From NCBI GenBank assembly GCA_945902735.1, contig CAMDNF010000002.1, positions 1,400 to 65,399 of the forward strand: a stretch of 64,000 bases of DNA, given 5' to 3'. This document shows positions 6,491-44,348 of the stretch, one piece after another. This DNA comes from Rhizobium sp. Q54 (GTDB lineage Bacteria > Pseudomonadota > Alphaproteobacteria > UBA828). The notes beneath the pieces were generated by a model. The model ran no database searches, had not been told where the DNA came from, and saw only the letters and a list, made by a program, of their open reading frames with translations. Numbering within the stretch: position 1 is the first letter of the stretch; every line of letters begins with the position of its first letter. The position numbers and the translations under genes were made by a program.

Positions 6491-7288
6491 TCACATATAA
6501 CCTTCGGCGCGCAGGCGCTCGAACGAATCTTCCGCCTCATGATCCATGGCGCGGCCAGCGCGTTCGGCGGTGCGGATGGTTTCTAGCTCGGTGATGATTT
6601 CATCGATCGACGCGGCGTTGCTGGCGATTGGATTGGTGATATCGGAGTCGCCAAGCGAGCGATAACGCTTGCCGCCGCGCGCGAGATAGAGCGGCACGAT
6701 GGGGATATTTTCACGCTTGGTGTAGCGCCAGATATCGAGCTCGGTCCAATGCAGCAAGGGGTGGATGCGGACATGGACGCCGGGCGGCATGTTGGCCTTG
6801 TAATAATCCCAGAATTCGGGCGGTTGATCGCGAAAATCCCATTGGCCTGATTCAGCGCGTGGGCTGAAGACGCGCTCCTTGGCGCGCGTCGATTCCTCAT
6901 CGCGCCGGATGCCGGCGAAGATGCCGGTGAATTTGTGTTCGCTGAGTACGGCCTTGAGACCATGGGTTTTGCGCGCGGCGGCGCGCGCGGCGGGCGGCAG
7001 GCTTTGGTCGACCGTTTCAATCGGCGGGCAGCCGCCAATGAGGAGCTTAAGACCCCATTCGCCGGCATAGCGGTCGCGGAAGTCATACATCTCGGGAAAT
7101 TTTTTGCCGGTGTCGACATGAATGACCGGAAACGGCACGGGGCCCAGGAACGCCTTGCGGCAGAGCCAGACCATGACGTTCGAATCCTTGCCGAGCGACC
7201 AGAGCAGGCCGGGCCGTTCAATCCGCGCATAGGCCTCGCGGATGATGAAGAGGCTTTGGCTTTCAAGTTGGTCAAGATGGTCGAGCAT
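6491..7288 (-). CDS. cysD: Sulfate adenylyltransferase subunit 2 (CysD/NodP)
   Basis: PAPS-reductase-fold motifs [11 protein letters not shown]…[21 protein letters not shown]…[15 protein letters not shown]…WTELDIWRY. Confidence 0.9.
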
Positions 7289-9332: not shown

Positions 9333-9368
9333 ACAAAAAAAGACGGGAGCGGCATTGCCGCTCCCGTC
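9333..9368 (-). terminator. Rho-independent terminator downstream of the porin gene
   Basis: Perfect 12-bp GC-rich stem gacgggagcggc-att-gccgctcccgtc (9342-9368), followed on the minus strand by a T7 run (A-run 9335-9341 on the plus strand). It lies 23 nt past the porin stop. Confidence 0.65.
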
Positions 9369-23499: not shown

Positions 23500-23754
23500 T
23501 CAGTCCTTCTTGTTGTCTTTCATGCCGAGGCCGCCCATGCCGCCCCAAAACGTCTTTTGCAGCTCCTCGAAGCCTTTCATCATTGATGGGCCCCAATTGC
23601 GCATCAAGGCCTCGGGCTCCATACCGGCGATCGCGGTGCGCATGCGCTGTTCGATATCGGCCATCACGGCCTTTTGCATGGGCTCAACATCGGGCAGGCC
23701 GAAGAAGGCGCGCGCCTCTTGGGGCGAGCATTCGATATCAATATGAAATTTCAT
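23500..23754 (-). CDS. Small hypothetical protein (84 aa)
   Basis: ORF 23500..23865, likely ATG at 23754 ([22 protein letters not shown]…). Gly/Met-rich C-terminus; no recognised family. Confidence 0.4.
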
Positions 23755-23821
23755 GGCGCTCTCCGGCATTGGCGCGGGTGACTCAACGAGGCGCCCGCCT
23801 ATATTGTGGGCGAGGCCCGGC

Positions 23822-25891
23822 ATGACTGCAAGCCGCGCACCCAAGGAGTCTCCTTTGAGCCGCAACCGCCTCGCCGAAGAAGCCAGCCCCTATCTCCAAC
23901 AGCACAGCGACAACCCCGTGCACTGGCAGGCCTGGGGCCCCGAGGCGCTCGCGGAATCGAAGGCAAGCGGCAAACCCATATTGCTGTCGGTCGGCTATTC
24001 CTCATGCCATTGGTGCCATGTCATGGCGCATGAAAGCTTCGAGGACGCCGAGACCGCGGCGCTCATGAACAAGCTCTATATCAACATCAAGGTCGACCGC
24101 GAGGAACGCCCGGATCTCGACGCGGTCTATCAGCGCGCCCTCGCGCTGATGGGTCAACAGGGCGGTTGGCCGCTCACCATGTTTTTGACGCCCGAGGGCG
24201 AGCCATTTTGGGGCGGCACGTATTTTCCGCCCGAGGCGAAATGGGGCCGGCCGAGTTTTCGCGACGTCCTCGCGATGGTCGATGAGGCCTATCACAACGA
24301 GCCCGAGAAGATCGACAAGAACCGCGGCGCGCTCAAGAACGGCCTCGCCGCGATGGGCCAATCGCGCCCGGGCGGCGAGATCACCAAGGTTCAGATCAAT
24401 TCCTGCGCCGACACCATGCTGCATGAAATCGACGGCAAGCATGGCGGCATTGGTGGCGCGCCGAAATTTCCCAACACCACGATGTTGGACATGCTTTGGC
24501 GCAATTACAGGCGCACCGGCTCCCAGCTGATGCGCACCGCCGTGCTGCTCACCATGGAACGAATGAGCCAGGGCGGTATTTACGATCATCTCGGCGGCGG
24601 CTATGCGCGCTATTCGACCGATGAGCGCTGGCTCGCGCCGCATTTTGAGAAAATGCTCTACGACAACGCGCAGATTCTCGATTTGCTCGGCCAGGTCTGG
24701 CTCGATACCGAGAACGCGCTGTTCCGCCGGCGCGCACGAGAGACCGTCGAATGGCTGTTGCGCGAAATGCTGACGGGGGAAGGGGCCTTCGCCTCCGCAC
24801 TCGATGCCGATAGCGAGGGCGAGGAAGGCACATTCTATGTCTGGGGCGAGGCCGAGATCGACGCGGTTTTGGGCGCGGACGCGGCTGTCTTCAAAGCGGT
24901 CTATGATGTTTCCGCGCACGGCAATTGGGAGCACGCCAATATTTTGAACCGGCTACGCCCGCCGCGTCTTGGCGCGAAGGTCGATGAAGCCGCGCTCAAA
25001 ACAATGCGCGCCAAATTGTTGGCCGAGCGCGCCAAGCGCGAACGCCCATCGTGGGACGATAAAGTCCTCGCCGATTGGAATGGCCTGATAATCGCCGCGA
25101 TGGCGGAGACCTCGCAAATTTTCGCTGAACCAACTTGGCTCGCGGCCGCGCGCAAGGCCTATCATTATGTCGTCAATGTGATGGGCGAGGGCGGGCGGCT
25201 GCGCCATGCGGCGCGCCACGGCAAGGTCAAGCCCGCCGAATTTCTCGATGATTACGCCAATATGGCGCGCGCGGCGCTTGCACTTTATGAGGCCACGGGC
25301 GAAGCGGTTTATATCGATGATGCGCGGCGCTTCGTGCTCCACCTCGATCAAGATTATTGGGATAATGCGAGCGGCGGTTATTTTTATGCGCCGACCGGCG
25401 CCGAAACGATTTTGGTGCGCACCAAAACAGCGCATGACAGCGCCACGCCGGCCGGCAATGGCACCATGGTCGGTGTGCTCGCGCGGCTCTTTTTTCTCAC
25501 TGGCGACAATGCCTATGGCAAACGCGCCGAGGCTTTGATGAAGGCGTTCTCGGGCGAACTTGAAGGCAATTTCGCGCCGATCGCCTGCTTGATCAATAAT
25601 GCCGAGCTCCTGATGGGCGCGGTGCAAGTGGCGATTATCGGCCGACGTGGCGAAGCAGGCACGGACGCGCTGATCCGCGCGGCCTATTCGGTCGCGGCGC
25701 CCAACCGCGTGCTCTTGGTCGCGGCGCCCGATGCCACGCTGCCGATCGGCCATCCCGCCAGTTTCAAACCGCAGATCGATGGCAAACCGACCGCCTATGT
25801 GTGCGTGGGCACCACATGCTCGCTTCCGGTGACTGATGAAGCCTCGCTCAAGGCCGAAATCGAGGCGGCCTCAGAGCGTGTGTTGGGGTGA
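23822..25891 (+). CDS. Thioredoxin-domain protein YyaL (DUF255 + six-hairpin glycosidase-like domain)
   Basis: N-terminal [22 protein letters not shown]…[22 protein letters not shown] (thioredoxin-like CxxC), followed by the long α/α-toroid region typical of YyaL. Confidence 0.85.
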
Positions 25892-25914
25892 GAAGGCGCG
25901 ACATCATCTGCTGC

Positions 25915-25940
25915 CCCCTCTCCCGCACGCGGGAGAGGGG
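25915..25940. repeat. GC-rich palindromic hairpin (REP-like unit)
   Basis: cccctctcccg-cacg-cgggagagggg between yyaL and ogt. Same stem family as the hairpins at 28384-28408 and 27266-27293. No flanking T-tract. Confidence 0.4.
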
Positions 25941-25952
25941 AAAAGCAAGTTC

Positions 25953-26474
25953 ATGCATGCCATGGCTACGCGGCTGATTTCTTCACCGATTGGGCCGATC
26001 GAGCTGCGCACCCAAGATGGGGCGTTGGTCGCGCTCACCATGTTGCCGAAGGCGGCAAAGCCCACGCCGCGTTTGGACAATGAGCCCATGTCGCCCGACG
26101 ATCGTGCGGTGCTGGATGAAGCCGAACGCCAATTGGTTGATTACTTCGCCGGTAGAAGGCGTGACTTTGACTTACCGCTCAAGCCCGAGGGCACCGCGTT
26201 TCGCCTGCGTGTATGGCGGGCCTTGAGCGAAATCCCCTATGGCGAGGTGCGCACCTATGGCGACCTTGCCATAAAACTCAAAACCGCGCCGCGCGCGGTC
26301 GGCGGTGCGTGTGGCGCCAACCCGATCGGGATCGTGGTGCCGTGCCATCGCGTGGTTGGCGGCAAAGGCGCGCTTGTCGGGTTTTCCGCCGGCGATGGCT
26401 GTGATACCAAAAAGGTGCTGCTCGCGCTCGAAGCGCAGGGCCCCTTGTTTGAACAACAACACGCACGGAATTAG
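25953..26474 (+). CDS. ogt: Methylated-DNA--protein-cysteine methyltransferase
   Basis: Active-site PCHRVVG, and the …YGEVRTYGDLA…NPIGIVVPCHRVVGGKGALVGF… region. Confidence 0.85.
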   Translation: MHAMATRLISSPIGPIELRTQDGALVALTMLPKAAKPTPRLDNEPMSPDDRAVLDEAERQLVDYFAGRRRDFDLPLKPEGTAFRLRVWRALSEIPYGEVRTYGDLAIKLKTAPRAVGGACGANPIGIVVPCHRVVGGKGALVGFSAGDGCDTKKVLLALEAQGPLFEQQHARN

Positions 26475-26486
26475 GGAGAACAGTGC

Positions 26487-27188
26487 ATGCCCGGACGCAT
26501 GATCACGATCAAGGCCAAGGACGGCGGTAGTTTTCAAGGGTTCCTCGCGACGCCCGATTCCGGCAAGGGTCCCAGCATTGTCGTGTTGCAGGAAATCTTC
26601 GGCGTCAATTATGTGATGCGTGAGATTTGCCACACGCTCGCGGCGCAAGGCTATATCGCGCTCTGCCCTGATCTCTTTTGGCGCATGGAGCCGAATTGCG
26701 AGCTATCCGACCGCACCGAAGGCGAGTGGGGTCGCGCGTTCAAATTCTATCAGGGTTTCGATGTGGCGAAGGGCGTTGACGATATCGCGGCTGGCGTCGA
26801 GGCCGCGCGCAAAGTGAAGGGCGCGACCGGCAAGGTTGGTGCGGTGGGTTATTGTTTGGGCGGCAAGCTCGCTTATTTGACCGCCACGCGCACCAATGCC
26901 GATTGCTCGGTCAGCTATTACGGCGTCGGCATCGAGGAATTGCTCAGCGAGGCCAAGACCATCAAATCGCCGCATATGCAGCACATCGCCGAGCAGGACA
27001 AATTCGTGCCGCCCGAGGCGCAAGCCAAAATCAAGGACGGTCTGAAGGGCAACAAGCTCGTCACGCTGCACAGTTATGCGGGCTGCGATCATGCCTTCGC
27101 GCGCTGGGGCGGCGAGCATTACGACGCCAAAGCGGCCAAGACGGCGAACGATCGGACGTACGAATTCTTCAAGACGCATTTAAGCTGA
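26487..27188 (+). CDS. Dienelactone hydrolase-family protein
   Basis: …GPSIVVLQEIFGVNYVMREICHTLAAQGYIALCPDLF…GYCLGG… nucleophile elbow. Confidence 0.8.
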   Translation: MPGRMITIKAKDGGSFQGFLATPDSGKGPSIVVLQEIFGVNYVMREICHTLAAQGYIALCPDLFWRMEPNCELSDRTEGEWGRAFKFYQGFDVAKGVDDIAAGVEAARKVKGATGKVGAVGYCLGGKLAYLTATRTNADCSVSYYGVGIEELLSEAKTIKSPHMQHIAEQDKFVPPEAQAKIKDGLKGNKLVTLHSYAGCDHAFARWGGEHYDAKAAKTANDRTYEFFKTHLS

Positions 27189-27192
27189 ATAT

Positions 27193-27293
27193 CCTTCCCC
27201 CGATATGGGGGAGGGGTGAGCCTAGAGCGGGCTACGCCCGCTTTCGTATCCACCCTCCAACCCAACCCTTCCTCCCGCCAGCGGGAGGAAGGG
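27193..27293. repeat. Mosaic REP-like element, copy 1 (three hairpins)
   Basis: Hairpins ccttccccc-gatat-gggggaggg, gagcgggc-tac-gcccgctt and cccttcctcccgc-ca-gcgggaggaaggg (a 13-bp stem followed by cttttcc). It is homologous, with compensatory stem changes, to 28301-28408. Confidence 0.6.
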
Positions 27294-27315
27294 CTTTTCC
27301 AGCGGAGTAGTTTTT

Positions 27316-28290
27316 ATGGTCAAGGCTGTTCGCATCCATAAACCCGGCGGTCCTGAGGCCATGGTCTATGAAGACGTTGACCTCGCGCCGCCGGGCGCGG
27401 GCGAGGCGCGAATCGTGCACAAGGCGATCGGCATCAACTTCATCGATGTCTATCACCGCACGGGGCTCTATCCGCTCGCGGCCTATCCCGGCGTGATCGG
27501 CATGGAGGGGGCGGGCCTTGTCGAGGCCGTTGGCACTGGTGTGACTGAAGTAAAAGCCGGTGATCGCGTCGCCTATGCCTCGCCGCCGCCCGGTGCCTAT
27601 GCCGAGGCGCGCAATCTCAAAGCCGCTTCTTTGGTCAAACTGCCGGCCGAAATTCCGTTCGAGAACGCCGCCGGCATGATGCTGCAAGGCATGACCGTCG
27701 AATATCTCCTGCGCCGCACCTATCAGGTGAAAGCGGGCGAGACGATTTTGATTCATGCCGCGGCCGGTGGCGTTGGGCTCATTCTTTGCCAATGGGCCAA
27801 GCATATCGGCGCGACGGTGATCGGCACGGTATCGAGCGAAGCCAAGGCTGAGCTCGCGCGCGCCCATGGCTGTCATCACCCGATCATCTACACCAAGGAA
27901 AATTTCGTCGAGCGCGTCAAGGAGATCACCAACGGGAAATTGCTCCCCGTGGTCTATGATTCGATTGGCAAGGATACGCTGATGAAATCGATGGAGTGCC
28001 TGCGCACGCGGGGGCTTCTGGTCAGCTTCGGTCAGGCCTCAGGCAAGCTCGACAATTTCGATACCGCCTCGCTCGCGCCGCGCTCGCTTTATTTAACGCG
28101 CCCGGGCCTGTTCAATTACATCGCGACACGGGCCGAGCTCGACGAATCGGCGAACGCGCTGTTCGATGTGGTGCGCGCGGGCAAGGTGAAAATCGACATC
28201 CATCACAAATATGCGCTGAAGGACGTGCGCCGAGCCCATATCGAGCTCGAGAGCCGCAAGACCACCGGCGGGCATATTTTGGTGCCGTGA
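27316..28290 (+). CDS. qor: NADPH:quinone oxidoreductase (zinc-type alcohol dehydrogenase superfamily)
   Basis: MVKAVRIHKPGGPEAMVYEDVDLAPPGAGEARIVHKAIGINFIDVYHRTGLYP…AAGGVGLILCQWAKHIGATVIG. Confidence 0.85.
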   Translation: MVKAVRIHKPGGPEAMVYEDVDLAPPGAGEARIVHKAIGINFIDVYHRTGLYPLAAYPGVIGMEGAGLVEAVGTGVTEVKAGDRVAYASPPPGAYAEARNLKAASLVKLPAEIPFENAAGMMLQGMTVEYLLRRTYQVKAGETILIHAAAGGVGLILCQWAKHIGATVIGTVSSEAKAELARAHGCHHPIIYTKENFVERVKEITNGKLLPVVYDSIGKDTLMKSMECLRTRGLLVSFGQASGKLDNFDTASLAPRSLYLTRPGLFNYIATRAELDESANALFDVVRAGKVKIDIHHKYALKDVRRAHIELESRKTTGGHILVP

Positions 28291-28300
28291 GAACACCCAT

Positions 28301-28408
28301 CCGCCCTTGAGGGCGGAACGGCCGGGGATGGTGGGTGACCTTAGAGCGGCCGAAGGCCGCTATGCTTCAACCCCACTCCCAACCCTCTCCCCGCTCACGG
28401 GGAGAGGG
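28301..28408. repeat. Mosaic REP-like element, copy 2
   Basis: ccgccc-ttga-gggcgg, gcggcc-gaa-ggccgc and ccctctccccg-ctca-cggggagaggg, with the shared backbone tgaSCYtagagcgg…ccgct…cc.ccctcccaaccc. The DMT gene's stop codon lies in the last hairpin. Confidence 0.6.
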
Positions 28409-29300
28409 CTCTCCGCTTCATCAGCATCGCCTCTCTTCGCGCGATATAGAGCCCACTGCCGATCAGTAGGGCCGCGCCGATCCAGGTCCAGAGATCGGGA
28501 AATTCGGCGAACACCAAATAGCCGAGAAAGGTCGCCCCGATCAGCTGGCCATAATCGAACGGCCCGACGATCGAGGCCTGGCCCAGCTGATAGGCCTTGA
28601 CCATGAAATAATGACCTATCCCGCCCGCCACACCCATTGAGGCGAACAGGCCCCAATCGACGAGATTGTGCGGCGTCGTCCAGAAAAACGGCACGGCGAT
28701 CGCGGATGCGACGAGGCTTACGGTGATGGTGTAGATGCCGGTCGTGCGCGGCGAATCATAGAGCGCGATGCGGCGCGTCAAAAGTTGATAGGCGGCATAA
28801 CAAAGCGCCGAACCGATGACGAGAAAATCCGCCCAATGCATCACCTCGCCACCGGGGCGAATGATCACAATCGCGCCGATGAACCCGACCATCACGGCGG
28901 CCCAGCGGCGGGGACCAACTTTTTCGCCAAGCATCGGGCCCGATAGAGCGACCACCAGTAGCGGCGCGGTGAAGGCGACGGTGGTTGCGGTCGTGAGCGG
29001 AATGAAGGTGAGCGCGACGGTATAAAACCCGGTCGAGGCGCATTGCAGGCTCGAGCGGCCAAGTTGCCAGCCAAGCCGCCTGGTGCGAAAGATCGCGAGA
29101 CCATGGCCCGGCAAGAGCATGGCAAGCATGACCAATAAATGCCCGGCCGAGCGCATGAAGACGACTTCGACCACGCCATATTCGATCGCGAGATGTTTCA
29201 TCGCCGTGTTGAGACACGGAAACATCACGATCGTGGTCGCGCACATGAACAAAATCGCGACGAGCGGGCGATTCAGCGCGGGGCGCAGGGGATCGACCAT
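28395..29300 (-). CDS. DMT-superfamily (EamA-like) transporter
   Basis: About 10 predicted TM segments and duplicated EamA-like halves. ATG at 29300 (MVDPLRPALNRPLVAILFM…). Confidence 0.75.
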   Translation of the reverse strand: MVDPLRPALNRPLVAILFMCATTIVMFPCLNTAMKHLAIEYGVVEVVFMRSAGHLLVMLAMLLPGHGLAIFRTRRLGWQLGRSSLQCASTGFYTVALTFIPLTTATTVAFTAPLLVVALSGPMLGEKVGPRRWAAVMVGFIGAIVIIRPGGEVMHWADFLVIGSALCYAAYQLLTRRIALYDSPRTTGIYTITVSLVASAIAVPFFWTTPHNLVDWGLFASMGVAGGIGHYFMVKAYQLGQASIVGPFDYGQLIGATFLGYLVFAEFPDLWTWIGAALLIGSGLYIARREAMLMKRRALSP

Positions 29301-29356
29301 GGGATCAGTCCAAGACCCTTCCGTCCCGCGCCCCGCGGGCAAAGGATTCGGCCTTT

Positions 29357-30613
29357 TTAGGTATTCATGCTTTCGAAGAAATCGCTATTGCCCTTGGTGC
29401 TCTTGAGCTTATCGACCAGGAATTCCATGCCGTCGATCGTGCCCATGGGCATCAAGATACGCCGCAGCACCCACATTTTGGAGAGCGTTGCCTTATCGAC
29501 CAAGAGCTCTTCCTTGCGTGTGCCCGAGCGCGCGATGTCGATCGAGGGGAAGGTGCGCTTATCGGCGAGCTTGCGATCCAGAATGATTTCCGAATTGCCG
29601 GTGCCCTTGAACTCTTCGAAAATTACTTCATCCATGCGCGAGCCGGTATCGATCAGGGCCGTCGCGATGATGGTGAGTGAGCCGCCCTCTTCGATGTTGC
29701 GCGCGGCACCAAAGAAGCGCTTCGGCCGTTGCAACGCATTGGCGTCAACACCGCCGGTCAACACCTTGCCCGATGACGGCACGACGGTGTTATAGGCGCG
29801 AGCCAAGCGCGTAATTGAATCCAAAAGGATTACCACGTCGCGTTTGTGCTCGACCAGGCGCTTCGCCTTATCGATCACCATTTCGGCGACCTGAACATGG
29901 CGCGTTGCCGGTTCGTCGAAGGTCGAGGACACCACTTCGCCCTTCACCGAGCGAATCATGTCGGTCACTTCTTCGGGCCGCTCATCGATCAACAACACGA
30001 TCAGGAAACATTCGGGATGATTGACTTCGATCGAGCGCGCGATGTTTTGTAACATCACGGTCTTGCCGGTGCGGGGCGGCGCCACGATCAACCCGCGCTG
30101 ACCCTTGCCCAAGGGCGCGACGAGATCGATGATGCGGCAGGTCATATCCTTGATGGTCGGTTTTTCGATTTCGAGCTTGAATCGCTCGTCCGGATACAGC
30201 GGCGTCAGATTGTCGAAATTGACCTTGTGCCGGGTTGCCTCCGGATTGTCGAAATTGATCGAATTCAGCTTCAGGAGCGCGAAATAGCGCTCGCCATCCT
30301 TAGGCGCGCGGATCTGGCCATCGAGTGTATCGCCGGTGCGGAGCGCAAAACGGCGGATCTGGCTCGGGCTGACATAAATATCATCCGGCCCGGGCAGATA
30401 ATTCGCTTCCGGTGAGCGCAGGAAGCCGAAACCATCCTGCAGAATTTCGAGCACGCCATCGCCGAAGATGCCCTCATCCTTCTCGGCGAGCTGCTTCAGA
30501 ATGGCGAACATCAGATCCTGTCGCCGCATCGTATTGGCGTTCTCGATCTGCAGCCGCTCGGCGAACTCCAAGAGCTCGGTCGGTGGCTTTTTCTTCAATT
30601 CTTTCAATTGCAT
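29357..30613 (-). CDS. rho: Transcription termination factor Rho
   Basis: N-terminal [25 protein letters not shown], Walker [15 protein letters not shown] loops; 418 aa. Confidence 0.95.
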
Positions 30614-33389: not shown

Positions 33390-33407
33390 GGGGTATGAGC
33401 CGGGCAA

Positions 33408-33816
33408 ACCGAGCCAATTTGTCGGTGCATAGTGGGTTTAGGGTTCGCCCTTCTTCTACTTCTAACTAGATTCTTAGGAAAGGATGATGTTGTAGATGGT
33501 GGCCTCGAATACGGTGATCCCCGCAATGGGTGAAAAGATGCAGGTTTGTGGACCTGAAACGCCATGCGATGCCAGAATGAGGACAATAGATAGGACCTAA
33601 TCTGAAGAGGCTTGGTGAGTGTGGCGTTTGGGTGCAAGGAATTATGGGGACTGATTATAGGATTCAAAGACGATGCCCGTGATTCACCCTGTCCAAACGA
33701 TCCTGCTCCGGATCTCTAACCCGGTACATGAAAGGACATGAACCTGCGGATAACTCGGCCCATGATTTCACCCCCATGGTCATCGGGCTCTTATCCACAG
33801 ACATTGTTCAGTTCCT
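33408..33816. other. oriC: Candidate chromosomal replication origin (oriC) between hemE and the DUF299/PSRP gene
   Basis: The only long non-coding gap (~410 bp) in the hem/maf/dnaQ neighbourhood. GC is markedly below flanks (AT-rich block 33430-33480). Perfect DnaA box TTATCCACA at 33791-33799, one-mismatch box TTATCCGCA on the reverse strand at 33745-33753, and three GANTC sites. The conserved hemE-oriC-DUF299 arrangement is described for alphaproteobacteria. Confidence 0.55.
33791..33799 (+). promoter_or_regulatory. Consensus DnaA box TTATCCACA
   Basis: Exact 9-mer match, 18 nt upstream of the DUF299 gene start, inside the AT-rich gap. Confidence 0.5.
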
Positions 33817-34644
33817 ATGGTTGATCAAAACCGCACGCTCCACCTCCATCTAGTTTCCGATGCGACAGGCGAAACCGCGATGGTGCTGGCGCGCGCGGCG
33901 CTCGCCCAGTTTGAAGGTGTTGCGCCGGTCGAGCATTTATGGCCGCTCGTGCGCAGTCAAAGCCAATTGCGCCGCGTCCTGGCCGGCATCGAGGCCAATC
34001 CCGGTGTCGTGTTCTATACCTTTGTCGAGGGCGAGCTAAGGCGAGATCTCGAGACCGGTTGCCGCATGGTGAGCGCCCCGTGTCTCGGTCTCCTTGATCC
34101 GATCATCGATGTGTTGCGCGGCTATCTCGGTATTGAGAGCCGCAATCTGCCCGGGCGACAACATGTGATGGATGCGCAATATTTCCAGCGTATCGAAGCG
34201 ATGAATTTCGCGCTGACGCATGATGATGGCCAAGCTGTTTCGACGCTTGATGACGCCGATATCGTGCTGGTGGGCGTTTCCCGCACGTCGAAAACACCGA
34301 CCTGCTTCTATCTTGCCAATCGTGGCCTCAAGGCCGCCAATGTGCCGATCGTGCCTGATTGTCCGCCGCCGGAGGCTTTGCTTCAACTGAGCAAACCGCT
34401 CATCGTTGGTCTAACGCGCGGCGCGGACCAACTCGTCGATATTCGCCGCTCGCGCTTGCGCACGCTTGGTCGCGATGACGAAACCGCTTATGTCGATCCC
34501 GAGGCGGTTGGTACGGAGGTTAAAGAGGCCCGGCGTCTGTTCGCCCGCGCGGGCTGGCCGGTGATCGATGTCAGCCGGCGCTCGATTGAGGAGACTGCGG
34601 CCGCTATTCTGCAATTGCATACGCGCCGGCTCGGGGAAGCCTGA
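33817..34644 (+). CDS. Pyruvate,phosphate dikinase / PEP synthase regulatory protein-family (DUF299 kinase/pyrophosphorylase)
   Basis: P-loop VGVSRTSKTPTCFYLANRGLKAANVPIV; 275 aa. Confidence 0.85.
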   Translation: MVDQNRTLHLHLVSDATGETAMVLARAALAQFEGVAPVEHLWPLVRSQSQLRRVLAGIEANPGVVFYTFVEGELRRDLETGCRMVSAPCLGLLDPIIDVLRGYLGIESRNLPGRQHVMDAQYFQRIEAMNFALTHDDGQAVSTLDDADIVLVGVSRTSKTPTCFYLANRGLKAANVPIVPDCPPPEALLQLSKPLIVGLTRGADQLVDIRRSRLRTLGRDDETAYVDPEAVGTEVKEARRLFARAGWPVIDVSRRSIEETAAAILQLHTRRLGEA

Positions 34645-40672: not shown

Positions 40673-41491
40673 ATGACCGAGAAAAAGCCCCGTGTCGGGC
40701 TGTTCGTCACCTGCCTCGTGGATCTGTTTCGCCCGAGCGTCGGTTTCGCCGCCGTCACGCTGATCGAGCGCGCCGGCTGCACGGTCGAGGTGCCCGAGGC
40801 GCAAACCTGCTGCGGCCAGCCGGCCTATAATTCGGGCGCGCGCCAGCACACGAAGGATATCGCCCGCCAGGTTATCGCGCTGTTCGAGGGTTATGACTAT
40901 GTGGTCGCGCCGTCCGGCAGTTGCGGCGGCATGATCAAGGCGCATTACCCCGATCTGTTCTCCGACGAGCCGTCATGGCACGCGCGCGCGGAGAAACTCG
41001 CGGCCAAAACCCATGAGCTGATCTCGTTCCTGGTCGATGTGCGCGGCATGAAAACGGTCGAGGCGCGCTTCGATGGCGCGGTCACCTACCATGATTCATG
41101 CTCAGGGCTGCGCGAGCTCAACGTTCACGCCCAACCGCGTAAGTTACTGGCGAGCGTCACCGGCCTCGCGCTGAAAGAATTGCCCGGCGCGCACATCTGC
41201 TGCGGCTTTGGCGGCACGTTTTGTATCAAATATCCTGAAATCTCGACTCGCATGGTGTCGGACAAGACCGCCGATATCGCCGCGACCGGCGCCGGCACGG
41301 TGCTTGCGGGTGATCTCGGCTGTTTGATGAACATGGCCGGGCGCTTGAGCCGCGAGGGCCGGCCGATCAAGGCGCGCCATGTCGCCGAAGTGCTGGCCGG
41401 CATGGGCGACCGTCCCGCGATCGGCGAGCCGGTTGTTCCTAATTCGCCGCATAAGCGGCGCGGCGCGGTCGCGCCGGCCAAATCTCGATGA
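40673..41491 (+). CDS. lutA: Lactate utilization protein A (Fe-S oxidoreductase, CCG domains)
   Basis: Duplicated Cys-rich CCG motifs (…VGLFVTCLVD…TCCGQPAYNSG… / …YHDSCSGLRELN…CCGFGG…). Confidence 0.8.
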   Translation: MTEKKPRVGLFVTCLVDLFRPSVGFAAVTLIERAGCTVEVPEAQTCCGQPAYNSGARQHTKDIARQVIALFEGYDYVVAPSGSCGGMIKAHYPDLFSDEPSWHARAEKLAAKTHELISFLVDVRGMKTVEARFDGAVTYHDSCSGLRELNVHAQPRKLLASVTGLALKELPGAHICCGFGGTFCIKYPEISTRMVSDKTADIAATGAGTVLAGDLGCLMNMAGRLSREGRPIKARHVAEVLAGMGDRPAIGEPVVPNSPHKRRGAVAPAKSR

Positions 41492-41537
41492 GTCAGGCTC
41501 ATCGAGATTTGGTGTAGGACCATACACGCACGCCGCC

Positions 41538-42938
41538 ATGGAGCCGCACAGCATCGACTTCAAAGAAGCCGCGAAGCGCGCGCTCGCCGATACCGAGCTG
41601 CAAAAATCGCTGAGCAGTTTCAAAGTCGGCTTTTCGCTGAAGCGTCTCGAAGCGATTCAAAAACTGCCGGAATTCGAAAATTTGCGCGATGAGGGCATCG
41701 CGATCAAACAACACACGCTCGCGCATCTCGATTTTTATTTGGGGCGCTTTGCCGAGAAGGTCGAAGCGGCCGGCGGCACGGTGCATTGGTGCCCGACACC
41801 CGATGATGGCCGCCGCGCGATTCTGGAAATCCTCCGCACCCATGGCGCCAAGACCGCGACCAAATCGAACTCGATGGTGGCGGAGGAATTGGGCCTCAAC
41901 GAATTCCTCGAAGCCAATGACATCGAGCCGGTCGAAACCGATCTCGGCGAATATATTATTCAACTCGCACATGAGCGGCCGAGCCACATTTTGGCGCCCG
42001 CCGTGCACAAGACCAAGGAGCAGGTCTCCGATCTTTTCTTCGAGCATCACAAGACGCGGCATTTGACCGAAGCGAGCGACATGGTGGCCGAGGCGCGGCA
42101 GTTTTTGCGCCCGCGTTATCTCGCGGCCGGCGCCGGTATTACGGGCGCGAATTTTCTGGTCGCCGAAACCGGCTCGATCGTGCTCGTGACCAATGAGGGT
42201 AATGCTGAGCTGACGCAGATTCTGCCCAAGGTTCATATTGTGCTCGCGACCGTCGAGAAGGTTGTCCCGACGCTCGAAGACGCCGCGACGCTGCTGCGGC
42301 TCCTCGCGCGCTCGGCCACGGGCCAGGAATTCGGCACCTATACGACGCTGGCGACCGGGCCGAAACAAATTGGCGATCAAGATGGGCCTGAGGCGTTTCA
42401 TGTCATTCTGCTCGACAATGGGCGCACGAAGATTCTTGGTGGCGAGTTTCGTGAGGTGCTGCGCTGTATCAAATGCGCGGCGTGCATGAACCATTGCCCG
42501 GTCTATTCCGCGGTCGGCGGCCATGCCTATGGCTGGGTCTATCCGGGGCCGATCGGCGCCGCGCTCGCGCCCAATTTGATCGGCCTCGAAGAAGCGCGCC
42601 ATTTGCCCAATGCCTCGACCTTTTGCGGGCGCTGCGAATCGGTCTGCCCGATGCGTATTCCGCTGCCCAAATTGATGCGCCAATGGCGCGAGCAGGAGCA
42701 CGAGAAAAAACTTTCGCCGCCGCGCTTTCGGCTCGGGCTCGATGCTTGGGCGTTCCTCGCCAAGCGCCCGGCGCTCTATGCTCTCGCGACCAAATTTGGC
42801 ATTGGTGTGTTGAGCGTCTTTGGCGGCGCCGGTCGCTTCAGCGCGCTGCCGCTGGCCTCGGGGTGGACCGCGACGCGCGATTTTCCGGCGCCCGAAGGCG
42901 CAACGTTCCGCGCCGCCTGGAAGAAGGCACGGGGCTGA
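41538..42938 (+). CDS. lutB: Lactate utilization protein B (Fe-S cluster-binding, DUF162/LUD + 4Fe-4S)
   Basis: …CIKCAACMNHCPVY…FCGRCESVCPM… ferredoxin motifs; ATG at 41538. Confidence 0.85.
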   Translation: MEPHSIDFKEAAKRALADTELQKSLSSFKVGFSLKRLEAIQKLPEFENLRDEGIAIKQHTLAHLDFYLGRFAEKVEAAGGTVHWCPTPDDGRRAILEILRTHGAKTATKSNSMVAEELGLNEFLEANDIEPVETDLGEYIIQLAHERPSHILAPAVHKTKEQVSDLFFEHHKTRHLTEASDMVAEARQFLRPRYLAAGAGITGANFLVAETGSIVLVTNEGNAELTQILPKVHIVLATVEKVVPTLEDAATLLRLLARSATGQEFGTYTTLATGPKQIGDQDGPEAFHVILLDNGRTKILGGEFREVLRCIKCAACMNHCPVYSAVGGHAYGWVYPGPIGAALAPNLIGLEEARHLPNASTFCGRCESVCPMRIPLPKLMRQWREQEHEKKLSPPRFRLGLDAWAFLAKRPALYALATKFGIGVLSVFGGAGRFSALPLASGWTATRDFPAPEGATFRAAWKKARG

Positions 42939-42939
42939 G

Positions 42940-44346
42940 ATGCCGGGATTGACCAGCGAGAATTTCCGCGCCAATTCGGTCAAGGCGCTGGCCAATCCGC
43001 AGCTGCAACGCGCGCTCGACAATATTCGGCGTGATTTCGTCGATTTTCGCGGCCGCGCGGTTGGTGAATTGCCGGAATATGATGAATTGAAGCGCCAGGC
43101 CATCGCGCTCAAGGATCATACGCTCGAAAACCTGGATTTCTATCTCGATGCCTTCGCGAACAATGTCGAGGCTTCGGGCGGTCATGTCCATTGGTGTCAG
43201 ACGGCGGGCGAAGCGCGCGAGGCGATCGTCGCGATTTGCAAGAAGCGCGGCGCCAAGACCATGGCCAAAGGCAAATCCATGGTCGGCGAGGAGATCGGGC
43301 TCAACGCCTATCTCGAGGCCGCCGGGTTGACCCCAATCGAAACCGATCTCGGCGAATATATCATTCAGATGCGCGGCGAAACGCCGAGCCATATCACGGC
43401 GCCCGCGATCCATCTGACCAAGGAAGATGTTGCCGATCTGTTTGCCGAGCGGCACAAGCGCCCGCGCAAGACCGAAATCCCGGCGCTGATCGCCGAGGCG
43501 CGAGAAATGTTGCGCCCGCGTTATCACGAGGCCGATATCGGCCTCACGGGCGCGAATTTTTTGATCGCAGAAACCGGCTCAAGCATGATCATCACGAACG
43601 AGGGCAATGGCGATCTGTCGCAAGTCTTGCCGCACACACACATCGTGCTGGCCAGCATCGACAAAATCGTGCCGACCATTGAGGACGCGCTAACGGTCGC
43701 GCGCATTTTGGCGCGTACCTCATCGGGCCAGGAATTCACGGTCTACAACACGTTTTCAACCGGCGCGCGCCAGCCCGGCGATTTGGACGGGCCGGAGGAA
43801 TTCCACGTCGTGTTGCTCGATAATGGTCGCAGCGCCCTGATGGGCACCAAGCAACAGGCGATGTTGCGGTGCATAAGGTGCGCGGCGTGCCTCAATCATT
43901 GCCCGGTCTATAAATCAGTCGGCGGGCACGCTTATGGCGCGGTCTATACCGGGCCGATGGGCGCGGTTCTGACGCCCACCATGGTCGGCCTCGACAAAGC
44001 GGGGCCGCTGCCCAATGCCTCGACCTTTTGCGGGCGCTGCGAATCGGTGTGCCCGATGGGCATTCCGCTGCCGGCTCTCATGCGCGATTGGCGCGAGCGC
44101 GAATTCGAACGCGCCGAGGCGCTGGCCACATTGCGAAAAGGCATCAATGCGTGGGCCTATTTGGCCAAACGCCCGATGCTCTATGCGCTCGCGACGCGGT
44201 TTGCCGCTGTCGCGCTCAAACTATTGGGCGGGCAACGTGGACGATTGGCCAGCCTGCCGCTCGGCGCGGGGTGGACCGCGACGCGTGATTTTCCGGCGCC
44301 CGAGGGCGCAACATTTCGCGCGCAATGGCGGCGCGCCAGGGGGTGA
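42940..44346 (+). CDS. Second LutB paralog (Fe-S cluster-binding lactate utilization protein B)
   Basis: Collinear with the upstream LutB and clearly similar (…CIRCAACLNHCPVY…FCGRCESVCPM…WTATRDFPAPEGATFRA…). It starts 2 nt after the first lutB stop. Confidence 0.85.
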   Translation: MPGLTSENFRANSVKALANPQLQRALDNIRRDFVDFRGRAVGELPEYDELKRQAIALKDHTLENLDFYLDAFANNVEASGGHVHWCQTAGEAREAIVAICKKRGAKTMAKGKSMVGEEIGLNAYLEAAGLTPIETDLGEYIIQMRGETPSHITAPAIHLTKEDVADLFAERHKRPRKTEIPALIAEAREMLRPRYHEADIGLTGANFLIAETGSSMIITNEGNGDLSQVLPHTHIVLASIDKIVPTIEDALTVARILARTSSGQEFTVYNTFSTGARQPGDLDGPEEFHVVLLDNGRSALMGTKQQAMLRCIRCAACLNHCPVYKSVGGHAYGAVYTGPMGAVLTPTMVGLDKAGPLPNASTFCGRCESVCPMGIPLPALMRDWREREFERAEALATLRKGINAWAYLAKRPMLYALATRFAAVALKLLGGQRGRLASLPLGAGWTATRDFPAPEGATFRAQWRRARG

Positions 44347-44348
44347 GT

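Follow-up and report, generated by a model that had tools for sequence, protein, structure and literature searches.

What are the two palindromic elements of about 100 bp that lie on either side of qor in Rhizobium sp. Q54, and would their folded structure act as RNA or as DNA? Both are found in the window analyzed here, a stretch of 64,000 nucleotides from contig CAMDNF010000002.1 (positions 1,400 to 65,399; assembly GCA_945902735.1), and all coordinates given for the window count from its first letter. A first-pass annotation, made from the sequence alone, had described a repeat family under selection for secondary structure, with hairpin arms that differ between the copies in a compensatory way. 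This was partly right, and both elements, their hairpins and the compensatory arm differences are present at the positions it gave. It did not recognize the elements as triplex motifs, and it made too much of qor and of transcription termination. Judged from their sequence, the elements are best filed as members of the poorly understood BoxC/PIT class of intrastrand triplex motifs; the class is known, and these members are new. BoxC/PIT triplex motifs have been known in Escherichia coli since the 1990s.

Three co-varying segments in each motif

Read along the G-rich strand, each motif has first a pyrimidine arm and a loop; the purine arm follows, and after 2-3 nt comes a G-rich mirror image of that purine arm (Table 1). 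The right motif of copy 1 has 11/11 Watson-Crick pairs, and its third segment gives 11/11 triads in the mirror register versus 9/11 in the direct register. For the right motif of copy 2, pairing is 10/10 and the triads are 10/10 in the mirror register versus 6/10 in the direct one. The stretch cc.ccctcc.aaccc, earlier taken as a mere shared backbone of the two copies, is instead this third segment, and it co-varies with the hairpin arms. Such co-variation of three segments by a mirror rule points to a DNA triplex motif, not to an RNA hairpin.

The rule extends well beyond these two motifs. Perfect pyrimidine/purine hairpins number 13 in the window and four orthologous loci taken together, and in 12 of them a triad-compatible segment, scoring 8/8 to 12/12, lies 2-5 nt past the purine arm; the opposite flank scores just 4-6. 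The single exception is the lone hairpin in the trx-ogt spacer, the third related stem of the first-pass annotation, which was confirmed as perfect and has no third segment on either side (4-5/10 triads). Composition-preserving permutation of the third blocks gave p = 0.004-0.11 per motif, and the six distinct arm types combine to p ~1e-10 if they are independent. In all loci gathered, 37 hairpins were found independently of the anchor in the search pattern, and a triad-compatible segment accompanies 29 of them, compared with 7% for the control side; the mirror register beats the direct one in 22/22 asymmetric combinations of arm and segment. The third base opposite G-C pairs is G in 175/176 cases; opposite A-T pairs it is A (n = 34) or T (n = 22), as the purine-motif rule has it. 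Orthologous copy-2 third segments (GGGAGTGGGG, GGGTGAGGGG and GGGAGAGGGG) differ solely by A/T swaps at positions facing A-T pairs. The terminal hairpins differ in length and are not alignable by MAFFT; their hairpin and triad statistics were computed by script.

Between the two copies, the central hairpins differ by a single G:C to C:G swap and the terminal arms at three positions, all of them compensated. The differences are compensatory as claimed, but they do not reflect co-evolution in place: the copies represent two pre-existing variants, with arms CCCTTCCTCCC and CCCTCTCCCC, each of which recurs elsewhere with its own matching third segment. The claim that structure is conserved over primary sequence holds, the central hairpin being 96-99% paired with compensatory changes (95.7% over 10 local copies, with 3 compensated pairs) and the L034 copy-2 hairpin showing an orthologous double change from G:C to A:T.

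The full unit consists of a plus-strand triplex motif, a hairpin AGCGSSC-N3-GSSCGCT and a minus-strand triplex motif, i.e., an inverted pair. It is intact in L032 copy 2, in L034 copies 1-3 and in L162. In the window, the motifs with the G-rich strand on minus are intact and those of the opposite orientation are partly decayed. For the left module of copy 1, which has lost its third block, the L034 orthologue still reads CCCTCCCCC-GGGAGC-GGGGGAGGG-ATATT-GGGAGGGGG, and for the degenerate left motif of copy 2 it reads CCCTTCCGCCC-TCGA-GGGCGGAAGGG-CTT-GGGATGGTGCG. Both copies share GGGTGA-NCN-TAGAGCGG, with TAGAGCGG at 27223-27230 and 28342-28349; two further matches to TAGAGCGG in the window (6687 and 14192) lie within coding sequence and are due to chance.

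The copies are homologous members of one repeat family, as the first-pass annotation had proposed. A covariance model trained on right halves only matched copy 1 at 27223-27293 (+, 75.5 bits) and 27189-27245 (-, 31.3 bits), and copy 2 at 28342-28410 (+, 63.2 bits) and 28295-28364 (-, 44.5 bits). Detection of the left halves on the opposite strand by a right-half model (44.5 and 31.3 bits) reveals the two-fold symmetry of the element. The model found nothing in the other 61 kb of the window at E < 0.01. A generic repeat finder run on the whole window missed the pair; the copies carry indels. The window holds 10 perfect hairpins of at least 9 bp, of which three are of the pyrimidine/purine type, in consecutive spacers within a span of 2.5 kb. 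Folding z-scores against shuffled sequences were -5.2 and -5.5 for the two spacers that flank qor.

Table 1. Elements, their parts and the neighboring genes in the window.
Feature	Position	Strand	Description
Copy 1	27189-27295		DLH-qor spacer; truncated left triplex motif, central hairpin, intact right triplex motif
Copy 1, left module	27193-27219	+	Short hairpin TCCCCC-GATAT-GGGGGA, then GGGGTGA; decayed triplex motif, third block lost
Copy 1, central hairpin (HP-B)	27226-27242		AGCGGGC-TAC-GCCCGCT, 7 bp
Copy 1, right triplex motif	27253-27293	-	Minus-strand reading CCCTTCCTCCC-GCTGGC-GGGAGGAAGGG-TT-GGGTTGGAGGG; on the plus strand, third segment 27253-27263, loop 27264-27265, pyrimidine arm 27266-27277, purine arm 27282-27293
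Copy 1, terminal hairpin	27266-27293		Perfect, 12 bp
Copy 2	28291-28408		qor-DMT spacer; composite; overlaps the DMT gene at its 3' end over the final 14 nt of the element
Copy 2, left triplex motif	28296-28335	+	Degenerate CCCATCCGCCC-TTGA-GGGCGGAACGG-CCG-GGGATGGTGGG; two stem mismatches
Copy 2, central hairpin (HP-B)	28345-28361		AGCGGCC-GAA-GGCCGCT, 7 bp
Copy 2, right triplex motif	28371-28408	-	Minus-strand reading CCCTCTCCCC-GTGAGC-GGGGAGAGGG-TT-GGGAGTGGGG; on the plus strand, third segment 28371-28380, loop 28381-28382, pyrimidine arm 28383-28393, loop 28394-28397, purine arm 28398-28408
Copy 2, terminal hairpin	28383-28408		Perfect, 11 bp
Lone pyrimidine/purine hairpin	25915-25940		trx-ogt spacer; CCCCTCTCCCG-CACG-CGGGAGAGGGG, 11 bp, perfect
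Candidate decayed pyrimidine/purine hairpin	29316-29345		rho-DMT spacer; proposed from the full composites there in L032, L034 and L162; missed by the covariance model
DMT (A)LSP codons and TGA stop	28395-28408	-	Located in the copy-2 hairpin (loop and right arm)
Thioredoxin-domain protein gene (trx)	23753-25891	+	
ogt	25953-26474	+	
Dienelactone hydrolase (DLH) gene	26487-27188	+	
qor	27316-28290	+	
EamA/DMT transporter gene	28395-29300	-	
rho	29357-30613	-	

Two observations on individual motifs may be added. Purine arms that contain C (GGGCGGAAGGG) face T in the third block (GGGTTGGTGGG, GGGATGGTGCG and GGGATGGTGGG; L032 3363-3431, L034 13324-13393 and window 28311-28335, respectively), and T opposite a C-G inversion is a tolerated triad. 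The trx-ogt spacer of L032 contains a perfect 21-bp palindrome, CCCCCACCCTAACCCTCCCCC-GCAA-GGGGGGAGGGTTAGGGTGGGGG (6842-6864 with flanks), in which two triplex motifs share one common hairpin, with a complete motif on each strand and a TTA loop as in E. coli type A.

Presence, absence and replacement in relatives and the wider family

Orthologous loci were retrieved via the DMT protein, except for L013, which came from a genome pattern scan. Copy 1 has orthologues in L013, L032 and L034, and copy 2 in L032, L034 and L162. Among five to six related genomes, four adjacent spacers are full, half-filled, reduced to a hairpin or empty. The trx-ogt spacer, which holds the lone hairpin in the window and the double-motif palindrome in L032, is empty (about 8 bp) in L013, L033 and L034. 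Between DLH and qor, the window, L013, L032 and L034 carry a composite and L033 only a short hairpin. The qor-DMT spacer contains a composite in the window and in L032, a composite followed by inserted glutathione S-transferase and AMP-dependent ligase genes in L034 and L162, a toxin-antitoxin pair in L013, and 8 bp in L033. The rho-DMT spacer has a composite in L032, L034 and L162, a degenerate one in L033, and at most a decayed hairpin in the window.

In L013, a FitA-like ribbon-helix-helix antitoxin and a PIN-domain toxin (266-924, -) occupy the copy-2 site between qor and DMT, and this spacer keeps only the first hairpin after qor. The ligase and transferase genes between copy 2 and DMT lie at 10924-13256 in L034 and at 2513-4845 in L162. 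The rho-DMT composite of L162 (1437-1590) has two tandem central hairpins, GAAGCGGGCC-AGG-CCCGCTTTC and AGCGGCC-TCT-GGCCGCT, which means that the number of modules varies, as in BIMEs. Element loci were thus found lost, mutated or reduced to a hairpin, a raised variability like that reported for E. coli; it is anecdotal, with no control spacers scored.

The first-pass annotation had also suggested that the repeats on both sides of qor might reflect a REP-mediated rearrangement. Capture of qor by these repeats was rejected, since qor holds the same place in relatives that carry no elements: synteny is kept in the element-free loci of L033 and of L164, a more distant relative in which qor and DMT overlap.

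Another of its claims concerned the stop codon of the convergent DMT gene, said to be borrowed from the copy-2 hairpin. The overlap is real, with the TGA (complement of 28395-28397) in the hairpin loop and the LSP codons in the right arm, but borrowing as such is no more than possible, because the tail has the same length in relatives without the hairpin. L032, with an identical hairpin, encodes the tail ALSP-stop. The hairpin-less relatives L033 and L013 end in ALLP-stop and ALAP-stop, with the same length and nearly the same residues, and the inserted-gene lineages L034 and L162, also without a hairpin, end in QVLT-stop at the same tail length. It is possible that the DMT tail derives from a hairpin arm left behind after loss of the remaining element. 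Alternatively, the element may have settled on a pre-existing pyrimidine-rich coding end. For annotation, the elements account for the odd spacers around qor and for the DMT stop within a hairpin, and they caution against calling small open reading frames or small RNAs in these spacers.

Further family copies exist elsewhere, as a genome pattern scan, a metagenome scan and the covariance model confirm. The strict composite pattern gave 24 matches in 185,579 species genomes, a set that does not include the source genome, and this number is estimated to be about chance level. Five of the matches are real, namely L013 and one orthologous Roseiarcus-type locus in four metagenome-assembled genomes (MAGs); the remaining ones were rejected as tRNA arms, coding sequence or an unrelated Oscillospiraceae motif. 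From this near-absence it follows that the exact composite form is not a high-copy repeat. The metagenome scan, anchored on one motif variant, returned at least 120 stretches. Among the matches listed, 26 are genuine motifs, many of them full composites, and about three quarters are low-complexity polypyrimidine noise. A perfect AGCGSSC-type hairpin lies 9-12 nt upstream in 12 of the 26 genuine motifs versus 4 of 86 noise matches, again among the matches listed.

The covariance model found 71 half-element matches in 290 kb, untrained copies included, with up to three loci per contig. BLAST against plasmids gave no match for copy 1 and matched copy 2 through its terminal motif only; replicons of Rhizobium, Sinorhizobium and Novosphingobium carry this motif between genes. 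The CCCTCACCCTAACCCTCTCCCCGC...GGGGAGAGGG motif is likewise present in intergenic DNA of Rhizobium and Sinorhizobium replicons. In the Roseiarcus-type MAGs (L021, L022 and L030), a triplex motif near the pattern match comes after a perfect hairpin TAGAGCGGC-loop-GCCGCTCTA, and a second motif lies downstream; the motif hairpin has one mismatch, at the same relative position as in the 'mm' types of E. coli TMECO. In metagenome contigs L046 and L084, a CCCTTCCTCCC-type triplex motif directly follows a protein-start-like sequence (MKIRAQIGMVLNLDKCIGC...) and may represent an insertion into a coding start or next to one.

Proposed triplex fold and competing explanations

The E. coli BoxC/PIT/TMECO motif (Bachellier; Hoyne and Maher) has the consensus 5'-CCCTCNCCC N3-6 GGGNGAGGG N3 GGGNGAGGG-3' (Holder et al., 2015; PMC4666352). 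In it, a pyrimidine arm and a purine arm are followed by a further G-rich block, which can align with the purine arm through reverse-Hoogsteen triads of the class II purine motif (PMC4666352). The ITxF definition of class II asks for three consecutive blocks on one strand (pyrimidine, purine and reverse-Hoogsteen), stems of 6-15 nt with at most one mismatch, loops of 1-6 nt, and the triads G.G-C, A.A-T and T.A-T (PMC4666352). Both right motifs of the window fit this description, with stems of 11 (copy 1) and 10 (copy 2) and loops of 6 and 2 in each. The inverted pair typical of BoxC is intact in L032, in L034 and in many metagenome copies, and the decayed left motifs of the window are still detectable by the covariance model. 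The strict TMECO consensus is matched by a Rhizobium copy (L006) and by E. coli copies and by neither window copy. Copy 1 departs from it in its arms (CCCTTCCTCCC/GGGAGGAAGGG), copy 2 in its third segment (GGGAGTGGG) and, with the arm held to 9 nt, in its first loop, which then measures 8 nt, and both have a second loop of 2 nt (TT), not 3.

The BoxC pairs of E. coli MG1655 have the same layout, with a motif, a spacer of 17-30 nt containing a short hairpin, and an inverted motif. Inverted pairs of this kind are frequent among the E. coli motifs. Shared features are the order of the three segments, the intergenic location and the low copy number, and from one relative to another copies have been lost, mutated or cut back to a plain hairpin. 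In the hrpB/mrcB pair the spacer reads ATCAGCGCGCACGTTCA, which is similar to one half of the central hairpin together with the 'TTCA' of the window elements. On the other hand, the central hairpin AGCGSSC-N3-GSSCGCT is well conserved here and vestigial or different in E. coli, and one window copy overlaps a coding 3' end, unlike E. coli BoxC. The triplex motif also occurs in Alphaproteobacteria, with TMECO counts given for Methylobacterium and Micavibrio in the supplement of the E. coli study (PMC4666352). As single-stranded DNA, oligonucleotides of the E. coli motif form a stable triplex in vitro, as found by circular dichroism and nuclear magnetic resonance (NMR), and the motif blocks DNA polymerase in vitro (PMC4666352). 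Its loci are more variable between strains, including reduction to a hairpin (PMC4666352). As in H-DNA-forming mirror repeats (homopurine/homopyrimidine), the purine arm, a loop of 2-3 nt and the mirror segment make up a classical triplex-capable mirror repeat; unlike in H-DNA, the complementary pyrimidine arm is on the same strand, so that a triplex can form within a single strand, independent of supercoiling.

We consider it probable that the elements belong to a dispersed, non-coding BoxC/PIT-type family of triplex-motif repeats that acts as DNA through a triplex fold of the G-rich strand. We infer that the hairpin would form when this strand is single-stranded, during replication, repair or transcription. 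The mirror segment would then fold back on the purine arm through reverse-Hoogsteen G.G-C, A.A-T and T.A-T triads, and the resulting purine-motif triplex would be beyond the reach of RNA. The triplex fold, or an enzyme recognizing it, may keep the three segments co-varying, and the fold may render the site prone to insertion, deletion and replacement. As a side effect, the DLH, qor and DMT messages would carry transcribed hairpins at their 3' ends, and these may slow 3' exonucleases or weakly attenuate read-through. The sequences themselves establish the anatomy, the mirror-rule covariation, the membership in a family and the presence/absence dynamics; triplex folding in the cell, its part in instability and any effect on mRNA belong to the proposed mechanism. 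One step further, triplex folding of the G-rich strand might itself be the selected feature or a requirement for propagation, and the composites might be a class of self-propagating, single-strand-structured DNA that is widespread in Alphaproteobacteria, its central hairpin read by a hypothetical enzyme; we regard this extension as speculative and would sooner doubt than accept it.

Several points weigh against the triplex reading. The E. coli motif showed no triplex in double-stranded DNA, and in vivo footprinting with dimethyl sulfate was negative (PMC4666352). The arm variants may stem from a few founder elements, in which case there would be fewer covariation events than were counted, and the 99.2% pairing of the central hairpin over 18 copies is biased by 8 metagenome copies that had been preselected for a perfect hairpin. 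The 64 kb contain only two composites and one lone hairpin. In the same block, the other changes of gene content, which concern ChaC and, in L034, a gene near maf, have no such motif beside them. No target-site duplication was seen between filled and empty sites (L032/L033/L034 and window/L033), which are too diverged to show or exclude one. Finally, the purine arm and mirror segment also fit a G-quadruplex pattern of four G3 runs. The locus and its relatives make up a compact natural data set, with arm variants and their matching mirror segments, triad-preserving A/T swaps, and filled, half-filled and empty sites. With such a data set, it is feasible to test formally, by comparative genomics and simple biophysics, whether the triplex fold is under selection.

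The elements also resemble the REP and BIME sequences of enterobacteria and pseudomonads, being short GC-rich palindromes at gene ends with mosaic modules and compensatory stem changes. REP/BIME elements stabilize upstream mRNA and are associated with rearrangements; REPs have a conserved 5' tetranucleotide and an association with RAYT transposases, and usually number hundreds per genome. REPs have no mirror-image third segment, unlike the window elements. RIME (Rhizobium-specific intergenic mosaic elements) and other alphaproteobacterial intergenic repeats are likewise mosaic palindromes of about 100 bp, and a relationship of the window elements to them is hypothetical.

A REP/BIME- or MITE-like mobile repeat, in which a RAYT-like or IS200/IS605-like single-strand transposase reads the central hairpin or the inverted outer modules, is a tentative alternative that we find rather unlikely. 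The mirror rule would then be a by-product of the needs of the enzyme, which is compatible with the triplex reading. Close relatives differ in whether the four spacers hold an element, one spacer can hold different variants in different genomes, and contigs carry several copies; all this agrees with mobility, as do the modular build with one or two central hairpins (L162), the conserved AGCGSSC...GSSCGCT sequence at a fixed distance, and inverted outer modules that resemble terminal inverted repeats. However, the annotated genes near the locus include no transposase, a GTAG-type REP signature was not noticed (no systematic search was made), and the missing target-site duplication counts here too, within the limit given above. 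Furthermore, the E. coli motif showed no link to mobile elements (PMC4666352).

It is unlikely that the primary function is that of a terminator or stabilizer of mRNA 3' ends, acting in both directions at the convergent qor/DMT junction as the first-pass annotation had envisaged. In favor of it, every copy lies just downstream of stop codons, and the qor ribosome-binding site follows the hairpin at a constant distance of ~10 nt in every relative, even in L033, which has the hairpin only. A short T run follows many hairpins (CTTTTCC in copy 1, CTTTTCT in L032, ATTTTCC in L034), and T makes up ~40% of positions 2-4 after the hairpin versus 21% in the background. However, a terminator scan of 25500-29600 flagged none of the element hairpins, and just 5 of 51 family motifs are followed by 8 nt with at least 5 T among them. 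Only 20 nt separate the end of copy 1 from the qor start, too few to hold a promoter, and a search for promoter-like sites found none; with a strong terminator at this place, qor would be silenced. The mirror-image third segment is left unexplained, and the E. coli PIT motif showed neither promoter nor terminator activity (PMC4666352).

A structured RNA under secondary-structure selection, either cis-regulatory or a small RNA, appears improbable to us. Predicted folds are strong on both strands (z = -3.9 to -5.5), and changes in both hairpins are compensatory. A permissive search gave a sub-threshold Rfam match to the Caulobacter small RNA CC0196 (RF01519) at 28295-28347 (-), with 18.2 bits against a threshold of 35 and E = 0.56. 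At gathering thresholds, Rfam returned nothing in the window, and a search for tRNA and tmRNA genes found none. The elements are palindromic, occur in both orientations relative to genes, and are dispensable in close relatives, with L033 lacking two. In addition, the mix of A and T in the third segment fits a purine-motif DNA triplex and not Watson-Crick pairing in RNA. A pyrimidine-motif triplex on the C-rich strand, of a kind open to RNA, was also rejected, as it needs only T opposite A-T and 22/57 positions would be non-canonical. The CC0196 family may itself overlap a BoxC-like repeat.

Least probable of all is a G-quadruplex or i-motif built on the four G3 runs (e.g., GGG-AGGAA-GGG-TT-GGG-TTGGA-GGG), for although G3N1-7 x four fits both copies and E. 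coli TMECO, it needs the outer G runs only and was rejected because the inner pattern is mirrored (A-GG-AA vs TT-GG-A, as in the 22/22 asymmetric variants), it leaves the retention of a perfectly complementary pyrimidine arm unexplained, and NMR of the E. coli motif argues against it (PMC4666352).

Gene setting and further observations

The window has a G+C content of 61.6% and belongs to the MAG of an uncultured alphaproteobacterium. The gene block from trx to rho (Table 1) is flanked by trmE-gidAB-parAB and hemH-hemE. Two DnaA boxes lie in the spacer upstream of hemE (33390-33879), one of them perfect, TTATCCACA (33791-33799, +), the other with one mismatch (33745-33753, -). We take this spacer, at a distance of about 5 kb from the elements, as the probable origin of chromosome replication, with parAB-gidAB-trmE on the other side of the locus. 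Over the window as a whole, DnaA boxes are no more numerous than chance would give, and no switch in GC skew is seen near the suspected origin.

Two tandem paralogous genes at 41844-44347 form a repeat with a period of 1405 nt, in which several blocks are 72-80% identical. Long perfect hairpins whose sequence is unrelated to that of the qor-flanking elements lie at 41478-41512 (15-bp stem CCAAATCTCGATGAG, loop TCAGG) and at 9342-9368 (12-bp stem GACGGGAGCGGC, loop ATT).

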